Shown in pieces: positions 44,933 to 52,437 of a stretch of DNA of 64,000 nt. Position numbers and translations under genes: made by a program. The DNA lies in assembly GCF_030384885.1 (NCBI RefSeq), contig NZ_CP128613.1, one strand, 5' to 3'. This stretch comes from Escherichia coli (lineage in GTDB: Bacteria > Pseudomonadota > Gammaproteobacteria > Enterobacterales > Enterobacteriaceae). The notes under the pieces were generated by a model. That model ran no database searches, was not told the DNA's origin, and saw only the letters and a program-made list of their open reading frames with translations. The first letter of the stretch is position 1; each line of letters begins with the position of its first letter.

Positions 44933-45073
44933 GGGAAAGCCCCTCCCGAGGAAGGGGCCTTAAATAAGGAAAGGGTCATGATGAAGATACTCATCATCGT
45001 GGTGCTCTTAGTCGTTAGCTACCCAGCTTACTAAGACTACCAGGGCGGGGAAAACCCCGCTCTACCCTCACTC
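44933..45073 (-). ncRNA. sibA: Sib antisense antitoxin RNA, unit 1 (approximate ends)
   Basis: Ends placed by analogy to the K-12 sibA/ibsA geometry (sib fully overlaps ibs on the opposite strand); not mapped from sequence. Confidence 0.45.
44978..45034 (+). CDS. ibsA: type I toxin Ibs, 18-aa hydrophobic peptide (MMKILIIVVLLVVSYPAY)
   Basis: ATGATGAAG... ORF preceded by an AGGAAAGGG RBS; matches the Ibs family. Confidence 0.75.
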   Translation: MMKILIIVVLLVVSYPAY

Positions 45074-45260
45074 CTGAAAATATGCCTTCACGGTCAGAAT
45101 GTCAATCCGCAGGCTTTGCAGTCTGCGATCCTGCCAGCAAATATTCTTTGCGAGTCGTTACGCAATAATCACAGATGAAACTATTTTATCTACGCGTTAG
45201 CGATAGACTGCATTCAGGGCGAAAGGAGGTAAGCCGATGATTTCAGCGGGACGCTGAAAC

Positions 45261-45401
45261 GGGAAAGCCCCTCCCGAGGAAGGGGCCTTAAATAAGGAAA
45301 GGGTCATGATGAAGTGGATCATCATCGTGGTGCTCTTAGTCATTAGCTTACCGGCTTACTAAGACTACCAGGGCGGGGGAAACCCCGCTCAACCCTCACT
45401 C
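45261..45401 (-). ncRNA. sibB: Sib antisense antitoxin RNA, unit 2 (approximate ends)
   Basis: As unit 1. Confidence 0.45.
45306..45362 (+). CDS. ibsB: type I toxin Ibs copy 2 (MMKWIIIVVLLVISLPAY)
   Basis: Second repeat unit; same architecture. Confidence 0.75.
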   Translation: MMKWIIIVVLLVISLPAY

Positions 45402-45588
45402 CTGAAAGTATGCCTTCACAATCAGATTGTCAATCCGCAGGCTTTGTAGTCTGCGATCCTGCCAGCAAATATTCTTTGCGAGACGTTACGCAATAATCAC
45501 ATGTGAAACTATTTTATCTGCAAGTTAGCGATAGACTGCTTGCATGGCGAAAGGAGGTAGGCCGCCGATTTCAGCGGGACGCTGAAAC

Positions 45589-45729
45589 GGGAAAGCCCCT
45601 TCCGAGGAAGGGGCCTTAAATAAGGAAAGGGTCATGATGAAGCTACTCATCATCGTGGTGCTCTTAGTTATTAGCTGGCCAGCTTACTAAGACTACCAGG
45701 GCGGGGGAAACCCCGCTCTACCCTCACTC
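45589..45729 (-). ncRNA. Sib antisense antitoxin RNA, unit 3 (approximate ends)
   Basis: As unit 1. Confidence 0.4.
45634..45690 (+). CDS. type I toxin Ibs copy 3 (MMKLLIIVVLLVISWPAY)
   Basis: Third repeat unit; same architecture. Confidence 0.7.
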   Translation: MMKLLIIVVLLVISWPAY

Positions 45730-45907
45730 CTGAAGTTATGTTACTCCACCCTTATTGTCAATCTGTAAGTCCACGTTCTTGCGGGGCGAATAGCAAAACC
45801 CTCTGCGCTTATGGGCCGAATTCTGAAAGTTGCTTTGCCTGCTCTTATTTCATTATTGCAGTCGGTATGATACCGGACCTCAATAATTCTCTAAGAAAGG
45901 ATTTCTT

Positions 45908-46567
45908 ATGAGCGAACAAATCACGTTTGCCACCAGCGATTTTGCCAGTAACCCGGAACCACGTTGCCCCTGCATTTTGCTGTTGGATGTTTCTGGTTCG
46001 ATGAGTGGTAGACCTATTAATGAACTTAACGCCGGATTGGTTACCTTTCGCGATGAGCTGCTTGCCGATTCGCTGGCCTTAAAAAGAGTGGAACTCGGTA
46101 TTGTGACGTTCGGCCCGGTGCATGTGGAACAACCATTTACCAGCGCCGCTAATTTTTTCCCGCCCATCCTGTTTGCCCAGGGAGATACACCAATGGGGGC
46201 CGCCATTACCAAAGCCCTGAATATGGTTGAGGAGCGCAAACGTGAGTATCGCGCCAATGGTATTTCCTATTATCGTCCGTGGATTTTCATGATCACTGAT
46301 GGTGCACCAACCGATGAGTGGCAGGCTGCTGCCAACAAGGTGTTTCAGGGGGAAGAAGATAAGAAGTTTGCCTTCTTTTCCATCGGTGTTCAGGGGGCGG
46401 ATATGAAGACGCTGGCCCAAATCAGCGTTCGTCAGCCTTTGCCTCTTCAAGGATTACAATTCCGCGAACTGTTTAGCTGGTTATCCAGTTCGCTGCGTTC
46501 GGTTTCCCGCTCCACGCCGGGAACGGAAGTTGTACTGGAAGCGCCAAAAGGCTGGACGTCAGTGTGA
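45908..46567 (+). CDS. yegL: von Willebrand factor A (vWA) domain protein
   Basis: 219 aa; MIDAS-type DxSxS motif ([11 protein letters not shown]); 4-nt overlap with yegK. Confidence 0.88.
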
Positions 46568-47325
46568 GCTGGCGTCTGGTCTATGCATCAGCCGTTGGAA
46601 CGTCGCACATCAGCGCTGACTTGTCTTGCCAGGATGCCTGCCAGATGCAGGTTGCCTGGCTAGAAGACCAGCAGCCATTATTGTCGGTATTTGTCGCTGA
46701 TGGCGCAGGCAGCGTCTCGCAGGGAGGCGAAGGTGCGAAGCTTGCCGTCAATGAAGCGATGGCTTATATATCGCAAAAAGTGCAGGGTGGGGAATTGGAG
46801 CTTAATGATGTCCTCGCCACGGATATTGTACTGACTATTCGTCAGCGACTTTTTGCCGAGGCAGAGGCCAAAGAATTAGCGGTTCGCGATTTTGCCTGCA
46901 CATTTCTGGGACTGATTTCATCGCCTAACGGCACATTGATTATGCAGATTGGCGATGGTGGCGTGGTCGTAGATTTGGGGCACGGTTTGCAATTGCCGCT
47001 CACGCCGATGGTGGGTGAATATGCCAACATGACGCATTTCATTACCGATGAAGATGCCGTTTCCAGACTGGAAATTTTCACCAGCACTGAGCGTGCGCAT
47101 AGAGTTGCAGCATTTACGGATGGTATTCAGAGACTGGCGTTAAATATGCTGGATAATTCTCCGCATGTGCCTTTCTTTACCCCGTTTTTCAATGGACTGG
47201 CGTCAGCAACGCAGGAACAACTCGATTTATTACCTGAATTGTTAAAGCAGTTTTTGTCCAGCCCAGCGGTAAACGAGCGTACCGATGATGATAAAACGTT
47301 AGCACTGGCTATGTGGACAGAATAA
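46564..47325 (+). CDS. yegK: PP2C-family Ser/Thr protein phosphatase
   Basis: 253 aa; Asp-rich metal-binding patches ([16 protein letters not shown]); coupled to yegL. Confidence 0.85.
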
Positions 47326-47389
47326 ACATCGCATGGCGGTTGAAGACAACGGTTCAACCGCCAGTTTAAGCAATCAATATAATGGCTGG

Positions 47390-47851
47390 CTAGCGAACTA
47401 ATTTTGCTCTTAGCTCGTCGGCTTCTTCTTTTGGATAGGTGACCAATAAAGGATCAATGGTATAACCACCGTAAATTTTATCCCCGCGCGTATACATCCA
47501 GTCTGAAATATCTTCTTTCTTGATTTTCCACTCCTGGCCATATTCTACGTTTGTAACAATACCAGGGTCATTGCTTATTATACCAATAAACATGCCGTTA
47601 GAATAAGTGACATCCGTGAGCCAGAAATGCTCGGTTTCTCCGCGATCGGTTATCGGGGCTTTGACTGCGAAAGTATCAGCATCTTTTTTATTCATAACTT
47701 CGATGAATTGATCGGTTTCTTTCCGCGCATGTTGAATGGCGTCAGACATCGCCTTTTTATCATAACCTCCTGTCACTAACGTATCCGAAATCTCACAATA
47801 GCTTGCGGTAGTAAAAAATAGCAGACACAACATAAGTAATATCTTTTTCAT
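47390..47851 (-). CDS. yegJ: small exported protein YegJ
   Basis: 153 aa with signal peptide (MKKILLMLCLLFFTTASYC). Confidence 0.8.
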   Translation of the reverse strand: MKKILLMLCLLFFTTASYCEISDTLVTGGYDKKAMSDAIQHARKETDQFIEVMNKKDADTFAVKAPITDRGETEHFWLTDVTYSNGMFIGIISNDPGIVTNVEYGQEWKIKKEDISDWMYTRGDKIYGGYTIDPLLVTYPKEEADELRAKLVR

Positions 47852-48051
47852 TTTTTCTCCAGAATCCCTGTGTAGTAAAAGTTAGCAAAAAACCTGTGGA
47901 AGTGAATCATTATCAGGTTGGAATTGAATTGTATCCTGATGAAATTGCATTATCATTTTTATTCTTGAGTGGGACTCTTCCAATATAGAAATAATTATAA
48001 TGGGCAGTGTTATTATTCATTGAAATATAATATGACTGCCCTTGAAACATT

Positions 48052-49998
48052 ATGAAGACAAATATAAAAGTATTTACATCGACAGGTGAATTGACCACTC
48101 TCGGGCGTGAACTGGGCAAAGGCGGCGAAGGCGCGGTTTATGATATCGAGGAGTTTGTCGATAGCGTTGCCAAGATTTATCACACGCCGCCACCCGCCTT
48201 AAAACAGGACAAACTTGCCTTTATGGCTGCGACAGCTGACGCGCAGTTGCTGAATTATGTCGCCTGGCCGCAAGCAACGCTTCATAGTGGACGAGGTGGG
48301 AAGGTTATCGGTTTTATGATGCCAAAAGTTTCTGGTAAAGAACCGATTCATATGATCTATAGCCCGGCACATCGTCGCCAGAGTTACCCTCATTGTGCGT
48401 GGGATTTTCTCCTCTATGTTGCGCGCAATATTGCTTCATCTTTTGCTACGGTTCATGAGCACGGGCATGTCGTGGGTGACGTAAACCAGAACAGCTTTAT
48501 GGTAGGCCGTGACAGCAAAGTGGCGTTGATTGATAGCGACTCCTTTCAGATTAACGCCAATGGCACACTGCATTTATGCGAAGTCGGCGTGTCGCATTTT
48601 ACGCCGCCAGAGCTGCAAACCTTGTCGTCATTTGTTGGCTTTGAACGCACAGAAAATCACGATAATTTTGGCCTTGCGTTGCTGATATTTCACGTCTTGT
48701 TTGGTGGGCGGCATCCTTATTCTGGTGTGCCGCTTATCTCTGATGCGGGTAATGCGCTGGAGACGGATATTGCCCATTTTCGTTATGCCTACGCGTCAGA
48801 CAATCAGAGACGTGGCTTAAAACCGCCGCCACGATCGATTCCGCTATCGATGTTACCGGGTGATGTTGCAGCCATGTTTCAGCAGGCATTCACGGAAAGT
48901 GGCGTGGCAACCGGGCGTCCGACGGCAAAAGCGTGGGTTGCGGCACTTGATTTACTACGCCAACAATTAAAGAAATGTACCGTTTCAGCAATGCATGTTT
49001 ACCCTTGTCATTTAACCGACTGCCCGTGGTGTGCGCTGGATAATCAAGGCGTTATCTATTTTATTGATCTCGGCGAAGAGGTGATTACCACCGTCGGTGA
49101 TTTTGTGCTGGCGAAAGTCTGGGCGATGGTGATGGCGTCAGTAGCACCACCAGCATTACAGTTACCATTACCCGATCATTTCCAACCAGCTGGCAGGCCG
49201 CTTCCTTTAGGCCTGTTACGGCGTGAATACATTATTCTGATTGAGATCACACTGTCAGCGTTATCGCTGTTGCTTTGCGGTCTTCAGGCAGAACCGCGTT
49301 ATATTATTTTGGTGCCTGTGCTGGCGGCTATCTGGATTATTGGCAGTCTGACAAGCAAAGCTTACAAAGCAGAAGTCCAGCACCGTCGTGAGGTATTTAA
49401 TCGTGCGAAAATGGACTATGACCATTTAGTCAGCCAGATCCAACAGTTGGGCGGGTTGGAAGGTTTTATCGCCAAACGGACGATGCTTGAAAAAATGAAG
49501 GACGAAATTCTTGGGTTACCGGAAGAAGAAAAGCGCGATCTGGCAGCACTTCAGGACAACGCAAGGGAACGGCAGAAGCAGAAGTTTCTGGAGGGATTTT
49601 TTATTGATGCTGCCTCTATTCCCGGCGTTGGCCCTGCGCGTAAAGCGGCGTTACGGTCTTTTGGTATTGAAACAGCAGCAGATGTTACCCGTCGTGGTGT
49701 TAAGCAAGTGAAAGGGTTTGGTGATCATCTGACCCAGGCGGTTATCGACTGGAAAGCGAGTTGCGAACGCCGTTTTGTGTTCAGGCCGAATGAAGCGGTA
49801 ACGCCAGCAGACAGACAAGCGGTAATGGCGAAAATGACCGCCAAACGACATCGGCTGGAATCGGCACTGATTGTCGGCGCGACAGAGTTGCAGCGATTCC
49901 GCCTTCATGCTCCTGCACGGACCATGCCGTTGATGGAACCATTACGTCAGGCAGCGGAGAAACTGGCTCAGGCGCAGGCTGATTTAAGCCGCTGCTGA
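48052..49998 (+). CDS. yegI: eukaryotic-like Ser/Thr protein kinase with central TM region and C-terminal domain
   Basis: 648 aa; glycine-rich GRELGKGGEGAVY, VAKIY lysine, catalytic-loop-like HVVGDVNQNSFMV, DFG-like IDSDSF; hydrophobic segment around residues ~400-440. Confidence 0.88.
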   Translation: MKTNIKVFTSTGELTTLGRELGKGGEGAVYDIEEFVDSVAKIYHTPPPALKQDKLAFMAATADAQLLNYVAWPQATLHSGRGGKVIGFMMPKVSGKEPIHMIYSPAHRRQSYPHCAWDFLLYVARNIASSFATVHEHGHVVGDVNQNSFMVGRDSKVALIDSDSFQINANGTLHLCEVGVSHFTPPELQTLSSFVGFERTENHDNFGLALLIFHVLFGGRHPYSGVPLISDAGNALETDIAHFRYAYASDNQRRGLKPPPRSIPLSMLPGDVAAMFQQAFTESGVATGRPTAKAWVAALDLLRQQLKKCTVSAMHVYPCHLTDCPWCALDNQGVIYFIDLGEEVITTVGDFVLAKVWAMVMASVAPPALQLPLPDHFQPAGRPLPLGLLRREYIILIEITLSALSLLLCGLQAEPRYIILVPVLAAIWIIGSLTSKAYKAEVQHRREVFNRAKMDYDHLVSQIQQLGGLEGFIAKRTMLEKMKDEILGLPEEEKRDLAALQDNARERQKQKFLEGFFIDAASIPGVGPARKAALRSFGIETAADVTRRGVKQVKGFGDHLTQAVIDWKASCERRFVFRPNEAVTPADRQAVMAKMTAKRHRLESALIVGATELQRFRLHAPARTMPLMEPLRQAAEKLAQAQADLSRC

Positions 49999-50010
49999 GC
50001 CATTTTTCAA

Positions 50011-51363
50011 TTAACGAAACACCACTTCTGCCCAACGTGCCAGCCCGGCGGTGACGGAGCCAAAGTCATCGCCGCCTGCAATCGGAATGCCCGGCAACTG
50101 TTCTGCCAGCGCTTTTTTAATCAGCGGCGATCGGGCGCTACCACCAGTCAGATAGATGACATCCGGTTTTTCCTGGGCGTTATCCAGCGCCAGTTGCACC
50201 TGTTCCAGAATTCGCGCCAGCGGCTGACTGAGGGCGTTTTCCAGTCCTTGTTGGCTAATCAGTGTTGCCAGTTCATCGCTGATAAACGGCAGCGATGCAC
50301 GAGTTTCTGCTGCGCTGGAAAGGGCGATTTTGCTCTCTTCCGCGCTGCGTACCAGCCGATAACTTAAACGCTGACGCCAGACTTTCTGTAACAGGGCCAC
50401 TTTCTCCGGTTCGCGGGCGTCGCGTACCAGGTCGTTAAGCAGACGACCGTTAGCACTACTGTAGAAATCACTCTGCGCTGGTACATCGTTGATGGCAACC
50501 GCATTCCACCACGGCAGGATCGGCAGGGCGATGCCTTTTTCAGTTTCGCCACCCATGCCCAGTAATGGCATCAGATTTTTAAACGCCAGTGCGATATCCA
50601 GATCGTTACCGCCAATACGGCAACCACTGTGACCCAGCAGGCTGGCTTCACGATCGAGGCGCGAACGCCACTGTGGCCCCATTAGCAGTAAAGAACAGTC
50701 AGTCGTACCACCGCCGATATCCACCACCAGTACGCGTTTTTCTTCCTGCAAGGTGGCTTCGTAATCCAGCCCAGCCGCCACCGGCTCGTACTGGAATACC
50801 ACGTCCTTAAACCCGGCACGCTTCGCTGCGCGCTCCAGAATCCCTTGTGCCTGGGCGTTTGCCTCATCGCCGCCCAGCCCCTGGAAGTTGATCGGGCGAC
50901 CAATCACCGCCTGGGTAATCGCTTCTGGCAGCTGTGTCTGGGCCTGCTTGCGAATGTGCAACATCATTGCGCAGACCAGATCCTCAAACAGTGCTACCTG
51001 CTGCGGTTTTAAGCCGCTGGCACCGAGGAACGATTTTGGTGATTTCACAAACCACACTTCTTCTGGATCATCAATGTACTGTGCCAATGAGGAAAGACCG
51101 AACTGCACGCTTTTCGCCGTAACATCAATATCTTCTTCGCGGTTATAACGAATCGCCCGACGCAGCAGCGCCTGCGTTTCATCGTCGTCTGCCGGAACAT
51201 CATGATGGCGGTACAGCCATTCGCTTACGGCTTCACGCGTTGGCGCGCAAAGCATTGAAGGCAGCAGCGTGCTGTCGTTTTCCATTTTCAGTAATTGCGG
51301 TTTACCGTCACGCATGACCGCGACTGAACAGTTTGCTGTACCGTAATCAAAACCAATAAACAC
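50011..51363 (-). CDS. yegD: Hsp70/actin-fold ATPase homolog YegD
   Basis: Track ORF 50011..51426; likely GTG start at VFIGFDYGTANCSVAV (450 aa); phosphate-1 and VLVVDIGGGTTDCSLL motifs. Confidence 0.85.
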   Translation of the reverse strand: MFIGFDYGTANCSVAVMRDGKPQLLKMENDSTLLPSMLCAPTREAVSEWLYRHHDVPADDDETQALLRRAIRYNREEDIDVTAKSVQFGLSSLAQYIDDPEEVWFVKSPKSFLGASGLKPQQVALFEDLVCAMMLHIRKQAQTQLPEAITQAVIGRPINFQGLGGDEANAQAQGILERAAKRAGFKDVVFQYEPVAAGLDYEATLQEEKRVLVVDIGGGTTDCSLLLMGPQWRSRLDREASLLGHSGCRIGGNDLDIALAFKNLMPLLGMGGETEKGIALPILPWWNAVAINDVPAQSDFYSSANGRLLNDLVRDAREPEKVALLQKVWRQRLSYRLVRSAEESKIALSSAAETRASLPFISDELATLISQQGLENALSQPLARILEQVQLALDNAQEKPDVIYLTGGSARSPLIKKALAEQLPGIPIAGGDDFGSVTAGLARWAEVVFR

Positions 51364-51436
51364 GAAATAATCCCCATGCCGGTGAAGAAGGGGCGTGACT
51401 TTAGCGAAATGTTGCCGTCGCGACAACCGGAATATG

Positions 51437-51449
51437 AAAGCAAAGCGCA
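51437..51449 (+). promoter_or_regulatory. putative Ada box in the alkA promoter
   Basis: AAAGCAAAGCGCA located ~50-60 bp upstream of the alkA ATG. Confidence 0.5.
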
Positions 51450-51496
51450 GCGTCTGAATAACGTTTATGCTGAAAGCGGATTAACAAGGAGATGCG

Positions 51497-52345
51497 ATGT
51501 ATACCCTGAACTGGCAGCCGCCATATGACTGGTCGTGGATGTTGGGATTTCTCGCCGCCCGTGCGGTGAGCGGTGTTGAAACGGTTGCGGACGATTATTA
51601 TGCCCGTAGTCTGGCGGTGGGTGAACATCGTGGCGTGGTGACTGCTATTCCGGATATAGCCAGCCATACTCTGCACATAAATTTAAGTGCAGGTTTAGAA
51701 CCTGTTGCCGCTGAGTGTCTGGCGAAAATGAGCCGCCTGTTTGATCTGCAATGTCACCCGCAGATTGTTAACGGTGCGTTGGGCAAGTTAGGCGCGGCGC
51801 GGCCCGGATTGCGTTTACCTGGTTGTGTTGATGCTTTTGAGCAGGGCGTGCGGGCGATTTTAGGCCAACTGGTGAGCGTGGCGATGGCAGCAAAATTGAC
51901 CGCCAGAGTGGCACTGCTTTATGGCGAACGGCTGGATGATTTTCCGGATTATGTCTGCTTCCCCACGCCTCAGCGGCTGGCTGCAGCCGACCCGCAGTCA
52001 TTAAAAGCGTTAGGTATGCCGTTGAAACGGGCAGAGGCACTGATTCATCTGGCAAATGCGGCGCTGGAGGGCACCTTACCAATGACAATACCGGGCGACG
52101 TAGAACAAGCGATGAAAACGCTGCAAACTTTTCCGGGTATCGGGCGCTGGACGGCGAATTATTTCGCCTTACGTGGTTGGCAGGCGAAAGATGTTTTCCT
52201 GCCGGATGATTATCTGATTAAACAGCGATTTCCGGGAATGACACCGGCACAAATCCGCCGTTATGCCGAACGCTGGAAGCCCTGGCGTTCTTATGCGCTG
52301 TTGCATATCTGGTATACGGAAGGCTGGCAACCAGACGAAGCATGA
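51497..52345 (+). CDS. alkA: 3-methyladenine DNA glycosylase II
   Basis: 282 aa; N-terminal MYTLNWQPPYDWSWMLGF. Confidence 0.92.
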   Translation: MYTLNWQPPYDWSWMLGFLAARAVSGVETVADDYYARSLAVGEHRGVVTAIPDIASHTLHINLSAGLEPVAAECLAKMSRLFDLQCHPQIVNGALGKLGAARPGLRLPGCVDAFEQGVRAILGQLVSVAMAAKLTARVALLYGERLDDFPDYVCFPTPQRLAAADPQSLKALGMPLKRAEALIHLANAALEGTLPMTIPGDVEQAMKTLQTFPGIGRWTANYFALRGWQAKDVFLPDDYLIKQRFPGMTPAQIRRYAERWKPWRSYALLHIWYTEGWQPDEA

Positions 52346-52353
52346 CGTTGGTC

Positions 52354-52437
52354 GCCGGATGTGGTGCGAGCGCCTTATCCGGCCTGGGGAATGAGCGATT
52401 TGTAGGCATGATAAGACGCGTTAGCGTCGCATCAGGC
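52354..52437. repeat. BIME-like pair of REP elements between alkA and dgcE
   Basis: gccggatgtggtgcgagcgccttatccggcc and gtaggcatgataagacgcgttagcgtcgcatcaggc. Confidence 0.7.

Follow-up and report, generated by a model that had tools for sequence, protein, structure and literature searches.

The closest described counterparts of the locus treated here are gene triads that encode a von Willebrand factor A (vWA) protein, a PP2C-family phosphatase and a Ser/Thr kinase. In the TerY-P triad, described by Anantharaman, Iyer and Aravind (2012) and given here as citing papers summarize it, a TerY-like vWA protein and a PP2C phosphatase are combined with a Ser/Thr kinase bearing a C-terminal zinc ribbon, and the triad has been proposed to be a phosphorylation switch tied to DNA-processing and restriction systems. 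A TerY-P-like module whose kinase carries an oligonucleotide/oligosaccharide-binding (OB) fold was reported to give stand-alone protection against T7-like phages (Gao et al. 2020). Sets of a kinase (with a zinc ribbon or transmembrane helices), a PP2C and a vWA protein have also been described in actinobacterial conflict systems (Kaur et al. 2020). The present locus is yegL-pphC-yegI (pphC is also named yegK; the three products are together called YegLKI), which lies in a 64,000-nucleotide stretch of Escherichia coli DNA, referred to below as the window (contig NZ_CP128613.1 of assembly GCF_030384885.1). An earlier note on this DNA had grouped these three genes with yegJ and yegD as one system beside an ibs/sib toxin-antitoxin array, and had recognized in the kinase, the phosphatase and the vWA protein an architecture proposed in the literature for conflict systems. 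That architecture is indeed the one of the TerY-P triad, as the standalone vWA, PP2C and Ser/Thr kinase genes are adjacent and co-oriented. The three genes of the unit are as follows.

45908-46567, plus strand: yegL, 219 amino acids; cytosolic vWA protein with DVSGSMSG at residues 27-34
46564-47325, plus strand: pphC (yegK), 253 amino acids, GTG start; PP2C-family Ser/Thr phosphatase
48052-49998, plus strand: yegI, 648 amino acids; the kinase gene

The list of open reading frames (ORFs) bears out the layout drawn in the earlier note. All five ORFs, the overlap of yegL and pphC, the motif of the metal ion-dependent adhesion site (MIDAS) and the gap between yegI and yegD are where it had put them, and the same genes and names stand in the RefSeq annotation of a 99.6%-identical genome. 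The vWA protein with an intact MIDAS (DVSGSMSG), overlapping by 4 nt with a PP2C gene, was recovered in the domain searches as well (Pfam VWA at 2e-9 for YegL and PP2C_2 at 4e-52 for PphC). The pphC GTG start sits inside the yegL stop in a GTGA overlap, through which the two genes are judged to be translationally coupled.

The extent of the unit was defined by a scan over one genome per species, which gave at least 533 confirmed relatives, and 80 loci were kept. In essentially all of the roughly 70 loci with upstream DNA, homologues of YegL, PphC and YegI abut, in one order and on one strand. The loci kept come from alpha-, beta- and gammaproteobacteria, Georgenia, Frankia, Paenibacillus, Bacillus and Clostridiales, and further hosts are Acidobacteria, Planctomycetes, one cyanobacterium and the archaeal methanogen Methanoregula. 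Co-occurrence of the trio outside close relatives, which the earlier note had put forward as a check, is thus found across phyla. Clustering of the ORFs flanking the 80 loci yielded no general fourth conserved gene. The triad of Klebsiella spallanzanii is 61% identical and lies in an unrelated genomic context. A YegL homologue is carried by 44 plasmids from outside E. coli (of the 52 plasmid records that match, 22 are typed conjugative) and by essentially no phage genome. Going by gene order and distribution, yegL-pphC-yegI is a functional unit that is co-inherited across phyla and has spread horizontally over bacteria and archaea. The real unit is therefore a three-gene cassette common to hundreds of species, archaea included.

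The only recurrent neighbour of the triad is a gene for a TetR-like protein of about 210 amino acids with weak family similarity. It lies on the same strand directly 3' of yegI in 12 related loci, mostly of Competibacteraceae-type genomes (L058:9961-10632, L078:9998-10627, L030:9932-10591 and 9 other loci), and it could encode a regulator of the cassette that is specific to this lineage. Several other apparent neighbour clusters were rejected as antisense shadow ORFs of high-GC genomes. Two copies of the triad are broken. In Ca. Methylophosphatis (L018) some 6.7 kb separate yegL from pphC, with yegI broken into three fragments that span about 7 kb, and in a metagenome-assembled genome of Nitrosomonas (L015) the triad genes are likewise in several pieces. 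Both have the appearance of interrupted copies, copies in decay or errors of assembly.

In Salmonella and Citrobacter, the corresponding locus reads dgcE-alkA-yegD-ibs-mdtABC and the triad is absent. The window is homologous to these two syntenic loci (L085, L086) up to about 45738 and again from 50011, and between these points Salmonella and Citrobacter have only about 50 bp. Because the homology breaks there, the triad is read as having been inserted in the Escherichia lineage, as a segment of about 3.5 kb, or 4.27 kb when yegJ is counted.

45739..50010: insertion of the Escherichia lineage carrying the cassette, about 4.27 kb with yegJ, from the last ibs/sib unit to the yegD stop codon

Within E. 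coli the inserted genes are fixed. Of 5426 complete genomes, more than 99.5% have yegL-pphC and yegI. The ratio of nonsynonymous to synonymous substitution rates (dN/dS) against another E. coli ranges from 0.04 to 0.15 for the genes compared, with 0.044 for yegL, 0.144 for pphC and 0.147 for yegI. On account of these low ratios and of this presence, the three are considered real genes under strong purifying selection. A scan for promoters and terminators gave counts equal to the shuffled expectation, and no use was made of it.

Against E. coli E69, pphC shows 81% amino-acid identity and a synonymous divergence (dS) of 0.85, and yegL, yegI and yegD have dS values of about 0.32-0.41. The excess divergence of pphC may point to long-standing allelic lineages or to recombination within the gene. 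According to published work, the B allele of pphC also differs in function from the K allele. The region as a whole, positions 45000-52400, is 99.2-99.6% identical to only 2 of the 5426 complete genomes labelled E. coli, and its identity to nearly all other E. coli is 90-95%. By these values, the window is DNA of a divergent Escherichia lineage.

YegL is the most conserved member of the triad, as its median identity across 67 triads is 61.6%, compared to 39% for PphC and 37% for YegI. In the alignment across triads the MIDAS is intact and invariant (D27-x-S29-x-S31, T94, D131). Invariant also are an N-terminal NPEPRCPC motif and a Ser-rich C-terminal tail (W191 L192 S193 S195 S200 S202 ... P213 G215 W216). 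A phmmer search of the PDB found no solved relative of YegL or of PphC. The TerY model of PADLOC aligns residues 90-169 of YegL to model positions 131-208 of 277 at an E value of 0.0088 (13.6 bits), a marginal match that probably reflects generic vWA similarity and not clear orthology.

In PphC the residues of the metal site are invariant (D24, D46-G47, D131-G132, D186-G187, D242-D243). The published work describes an active enzyme in spite of the lack of 2 of the 8 canonical PP2C residues. It has been reported that PphC dephosphorylates YegI and that YegI phosphorylates PphC; the activity of the two purified proteins, on each other as well, was already on record, which the earlier note had overlooked. 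PphC draws no match from any PADLOC model, even at E<=10, and this relaxed threshold brought no further match to a TerY-P component.

YegI itself finds no Pkinase match in Pfam and one marginal HHH_5 match, and its phmmer matches to kinases of the PDB are marginal (E>0.1). The domain searches thus confirmed the vWA, PP2C and HSP70 folds of the neighbourhood, and Pfam Pkinase missed the kinase. Taken alone, the Pfam result would refute the kinase assignment; it is a false negative, because the structural model of YegI and 24 of 28 homologues show the kinase. The AlphaFold2 (AF2) model has a mean predicted local distance difference test score (pLDDT) of 93.5 and a predicted template modelling score (pTM) of 0.83. 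Foldseek matches it to more than 1900 kinases of the PDB, with target template modelling (TM) scores of 0.65-0.74 to PknB, BRAF and Aurora, and Pfam Pkinase is significant in the 24 of 28 homologues just mentioned. On the model and these homologues the kinase-fold assignment is secure, and the possibility that YegI is not a kinase was rejected on structure prediction, fold search and the Pfam scan of homologues. The description in the earlier note of a membrane-associated eukaryotic-like kinase holds, given this fold and a published two-pass topology.

The YegI family counts 3235 cluster representatives at E<1e-30, mostly of about 645 amino acids, of which 108 were aligned. The predicted parts of the protein are given below.

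48052..48951, plus strand: residues 1-300, atypical Hanks-type Ser/Thr kinase domain (AF2 model, Foldseek and alignment)
48967..49041, plus strand: residues 306-330, zinc-knuckle/zinc-ribbon-like element, C309-x5-H315-x8-C324-P-W-C327
49219..49347, plus strand: residues 390-432, transmembrane hairpin with model helices 390-410 and 420-432
49357..49590, plus strand: residues 436-513, long cytoplasmic helices, coiled-coil-like (AF2 secondary structure)
49600..49776, plus strand: residues 517-575, predicted double helix-hairpin-helix module, (HhH)2 (GVGPARKAALRSFGIETAADV ... VKGFGDHLTQAVIDW)
49804..49992, plus strand: residues 585-647, single long C-terminal helix that ends in the conserved LAQAxADL

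The kinase domain has a bilobal fold with a glycine-rich loop (G22-G27), the beta3 lysine K41, the catalytic and metal-binding aspartates in G142-D143-V-N145 and D161-S162-D163-S164-F165, a 'TPPE' segment (P186-E187) and D204. The canonical HRD and DFG motifs of Hanks-type kinases are not present; VGD stands in place of HRD and D161-S162-D163-S164-F165 in place of DFG. The glycine-rich loop, K41, D143, N145, D161, D163, S164 and F165 are invariant in the 108 homologues. The K39 and D141 mutants of the published activity assays correspond to K41 and D143 here. According to the same literature, YegI autophosphorylates on three serines of the activation segment (S155, S162 and S164 here), the serine matching S164 being invariant and essential; the enzyme prefers Mn2+ and follows second-order kinetics. 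Overexpression of yegI slows growth, and expression in the laboratory has been reported as undetectable or at most weak in stationary phase.

Directly after the kinase domain, C309, H315, C324 and C327 are invariant in the 108 homologues, and the model shows two short strands and then a helix at residues 306-330. This C-H-C-C element is a putative zinc knuckle, and it would correspond to the zinc ribbon of the TerY-P kinases. Published PhoA-LacZ fusions at residues 340, 390, 414, 432, 439 and 646 support the transmembrane hairpin, which anchors YegI in the inner membrane with both termini in the cytoplasm. The family shares the motif GIGPxRKAxLxSxGIETAADV...PGFG in the alignment, and the (HhH)2 module has a predicted role in binding either nucleic acid or a protein partner. 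Some longer homologues of 700-1158 amino acids (P0026, P0049, P0083, P0086 and others) carry extra C-terminal TPR or bacterial SH3 domains, and one has a C4 zinc ribbon of the topoisomerase Top1 type.

The genes that frame or interrupt the cassette are the following.

44963-45761, SIB RNAs on the minus strand: three tandem ibs/sib type I toxin-antitoxin units of about 328 bp each
44963-45105, 45291-45433 and 45619-45761, minus strand: the SIB RNAs, each opposite a 19-codon ibs ORF
47390-47851, minus strand: yegJ, 153 amino acids; DUF2314 protein
47317..48106: yegJ cassette, about 790 bp and AT-rich, which replaces an ancestral pphC/yegI overlap junction of about 55 bp
50011-51363, minus strand: yegD, 450 amino acids by the RefSeq start; Hsp70/actin-fold ATPase with the nucleotide-binding domain only

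The reverse orientation of yegJ, the 648-amino-acid kinase that follows it and the convergent yegD, whose stop lies 12 bp past that of yegI, agree with the ORF list. In Pfam, YegD matches the HSP70 nucleotide-binding domain alone, the NCBIfam model PRK11678 scores 811 bits, and the domain search matched no substrate-binding domain. The longest ORF of yegD extends to a TTG at 51426, which lies 21 codons ahead of the ATG annotated as the start (51363), and some database entries of YegD are 471-480 amino acids long.

In Salmonella and Citrobacter yegD is 88-91% identical and abuts ibs/mdtA without the triad. Among the roughly 70 loci, a YegD gene stands beside the triad only in two E. coli loci, and beside none of the non-E. 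coli triads. Since both yegD and ibs/sib hold this locus without the triad in Salmonella and Citrobacter, they are best seen as bystanders, that is, ancestral enterobacterial neighbours outside the cassette. The ibs/sib array was correctly placed by the earlier note, with three units directly upstream of yegL; any functional link falls away, as the closeness reflects the insertion site. Salmonella and Citrobacter have one ibs/sib unit at the corresponding position.

The one part of the region that is AT-rich (GC content 0.37) is the part that holds yegJ. The yegJ product matches Pfam DUF2314 at 3e-25 and has an N-terminus that resembles a signal peptide. The boundaries of the yegJ cassette come from an alignment with the yegJ-less locus of E. 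coli E69 (L020). The cassette brings a new pphC stop, yegJ, a divergent intergenic region of 200 bp and a new 5' end of yegI, and it rewrites the first 19 or so residues of YegI. The new N-terminus still fits the family consensus, and for this reason the sequence data suggest that it was imported from a diverged allele and did not arise de novo. The cassette is present in 1924 of the 5426 complete E. coli genomes (35%) and absent from 65%. Published work assigns yegJ to K-type strains and its absence to B-type strains; in the counts over complete genomes, yegJ is not confined to relatives of K-12. Among the roughly 70 loci no non-E. coli triad has YegJ alongside, the sole carrier being the closest E. 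coli relative of the window. By synteny, yegJ is a secondary insertion that splits the operon, the K-12 copy included, and lies outside the conserved cassette. It has been reported that YegJ binds the N-terminal domain of RNase E and that its overproduction is toxic, makes the envelope leaky and induces yegD; these effects give no tie to the conserved cassette. Of the gene set that the earlier note had taken as a system, yegL-pphC-yegI is upheld by its conservation across phyla and yegJ and yegD drop out by synteny, as neither co-occurs with the triad outside close relatives in the roughly 70 loci.

Sampling of large neighbours showed a defence-type neighbour at about 8 of 18 triad loci, a raw share that is suggestive of a link to defence. 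The neighbours include Gabija GajA/GajB, a type I restriction-modification (RM) system plus a TIR protein, a C5-methyltransferase, a DpdF-like helicase, a type IV restriction-endonuclease domain and an Nhi-like helicase. The triad of Pseudomonas alcaligenes is directly preceded by a complete Gabija system (L019:2552-6516; GajA at E 3e-215, GajB at E 1e-221). In a published genome-wide overexpression screen, YegL and YegI independently came up as proteins whose excess raises the level of endogenous DNA damage. The same screen also picked out the neighbouring MdtA and MdtB.

Taken as a whole, these data are best explained by a self-contained, horizontally transferred phospho-switch of the TerY-P type that became fixed in Escherichia between ibs/sib and yegD, that would sense conflict or stress and that would serve in defence against phages or other invading DNA. 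This complete picture has an even chance of being right. Defence appears the most likely role because related TerY-P-like triads have been shown to be anti-phage; for this role by itself, and for the individual steps set out next, the likelihood falls slightly short of even. The membrane-tethered, PphC-restrained character of the switch is drawn from the published YegI/PphC biochemistry together with the conservation pattern. In resting cells PphC would keep YegI off. A trigger would then tip the balance to autoactivation of YegI; this could be a nucleic acid or a partner recognized by the (HhH)2/coiled-coil part of YegI close to the membrane, or a ligand caught by the MIDAS of YegL. Active YegI would phosphorylate its targets, for which the Ser-rich tail of YegL is the prime candidate, followed by host or invader proteins. 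The outcome might be growth arrest or interference with DNA transactions, and PphC would reset the switch.

A more specific version of the defence reading is improbable. It takes YegLKI for a membrane-tethered nucleic-acid-sensing kinase in which the (HhH)2/coiled coil detects DNA that enters or builds up at the inner membrane, for instance during phage injection or conjugation. Its continuation, which is no less doubtful, has the kinase freed from PphC and the phosphorylated YegL tail acting as an effector or adaptor that blocks DNA transactions. If true, E. coli would have in its core genome a silent kinase pathway of innate immunity whose mechanism differs from that of the OB-fold TerY-P system.

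Several observations weigh against a defence role. The searched literature reports no phage, plasmid or stress phenotype of the E. coli locus, and it reports no condition in which this transcriptionally silent locus is expressed; the statement of the earlier note that the locus has no established physiological role agrees with this literature. The triad is a near-universal core set of fixed position in E. coli, whereas most defence systems are accessory. Escherichia coli B is a classical host of T phages. An intact operon is carried by that same strain according to published work. Support from PADLOC is poor (TerY on YegL is marginal, PphC has none and YegI is weak). Roughly half of the sampled triad loci have no defence neighbour. 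The longer YegI homologues revealed no enzymatic, toxin or nuclease effector domain, and (HhH)2-like folds may serve protein contacts, since NusA AR2 and SAM domains are among the fold matches.

An alternative that is unlikely, if well within reason, holds that the triad is a domesticated endogenous signalling module in which YegI and PphC form a housekeeping pair with YegL as adaptor or substrate and with no anti-invader role; the cue may concern the envelope state or the handling of DNA damage or stationary phase. Such a module would account for the fixed core position in more than 99.5% of complete E. coli genomes, for the strong purifying selection (dN/dS 0.04-0.15) and for the weak expression detected in stationary phase in published work, and it fits the reported perturbation of DNA integrity by overproduced YegL or YegI. 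Many bacterial pairs of a Hanks kinase and a PP2C are moreover discussed in the literature as physiological regulators. Against it stands the absence of the triad from the syntenic locus of the closest genera, and the patchy spread across domains, on plasmids and in unrelated neighbourhoods follows the pattern of a mobile accessory element. The triad also recurs beside RM, Gabija and TIR genes, and neither an endogenous substrate nor a phenotype is found in the literature. Quite improbable is a sensor of metal or chemical stress, as first proposed for TerY-P, in which the MIDAS of YegL reports a metal or xenobiotic in the manner of tellurite resistance. The invariance of this MIDAS and the published preference of YegI for Mn2+ are in its favour; however, TerB, TerC, TerD and TerZ are missing from the window and from the recurrent neighbours of the triad, the match of YegL to the PADLOC TerY model is marginal, and a MIDAS metal normally binds an acidic or phosphorylated ligand and does not sense metals.

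Very improbable indeed is a five-gene system in which YegJ and the Hsp70-like YegD act with the triad, possibly together with ibs/sib. The genes are adjacent in the window, and overexpression of yegJ induces yegD, from which the authors of that work speculate on a common pathway; the induction accompanies the general envelope and protein stress of toxic YegJ overproduction, as published. Synteny largely refutes this arrangement, given that Salmonella and Citrobacter have yegD and ibs at this locus but no triad, that no homologue of YegD or YegJ adjoins any of the roughly 70 triads outside E. coli, and that yegJ is missing from 65% of E. coli and breaks the ancestral coupling of pphC and yegI.

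The best-studied bacterium has few eukaryote-like signalling genes, and yegL, pphC and yegI belong to them. If the cassette is a switch for defence or DNA surveillance, it adds a kinase-based pathway of immunity that escapes the defence-finder models in current use; otherwise it is an ordinary kinase/phosphatase locus that is already annotated. The definition of the unit points to the intact B-type operon, to the MIDAS and Ser tail of YegL and to the zinc knuckle and HhH part of YegI, and it sets aside yegD and ibs/sib.

Compared with known systems, YegLKI shares with the TerY-P triad a vWA protein, a PP2C and a kinase followed by a zinc-binding element, as well as mobility, frequent location beside restriction or defence genes and the lack of an obvious toxin. 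The kinases differ at the C-terminus. The validated TerY-P kinase ends in an OB fold and the CoCoNuT-associated version stops at the zinc ribbon, whereas YegI continues past the zinc knuckle into a transmembrane hairpin, a coiled coil, (HhH)2 and a long helix, and thus departs from the OB-fold type of Gao et al. 2020. No ter genes and no McrBC/CoCoNuT genes were seen linked to the YegLKI triad and, unlike TerY-P, YegLKI is fixed as a core locus in E. coli. The PADLOC defence models do not recognize PphC and YegI as phosphatase and kinase of a known system. Overall, YegLKI almost certainly belongs to the TerY-P triad class, as a distinct family member.

The same three protein types make up the GAP1-N2 GTPase-linked sets (Kaur et al. 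2020); YegLKI differs from these in that no GAP1-N2 GTPase occurs in the window or the sampled loci and in that it is not restricted to actinobacteria. Among the PADLOC models, YegI is closest to the PD-T4-6 defence kinases (E 8.6e-5 over residues 19-240, a weak match) and also weakly matches the kinase-core model of MkoA. PD-T4-6 and Stk2 of Staphylococcus are only weakly similar to YegI in the kinase core, and they have neither a dedicated PP2C and vWA protein nor the membrane and (HhH)2 architecture. A defence kinase of the Stk2 type is itself the effector and phosphorylates many proteins.

In the PpkA/PppA/Fha1 pathway of the type VI secretion system (T6SS) of Pseudomonas aeruginosa, a Hanks-type membrane kinase, a PP2C and a vWA domain likewise form an on/off switch. 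The vWA domain of PpkA is fused to the kinase and periplasmic, and the output is an FHA protein and the T6SS. Neither FHA nor T6SS genes were found in the window or among the recurrent neighbours of the triad. PknB/PstP and PrkC/PrpC resemble YegI/PphC in the kinase fold (TM score of about 0.7 to PknB), in the organization as one operon and in a phosphatase that acts on the kinase. In contrast to these pairs, YegI lacks an extracellular sensor such as PASTA, carries VGD and DSD/DSF motifs and has an obligatory vWA partner. The enzymology of PphC and YegI and the triad class were already known; the present analysis contributes the precise extent of the unit, the history of its insertion, the placing of the zinc knuckle and the (HhH)2 module in YegI and the exceptional conservation of YegL.

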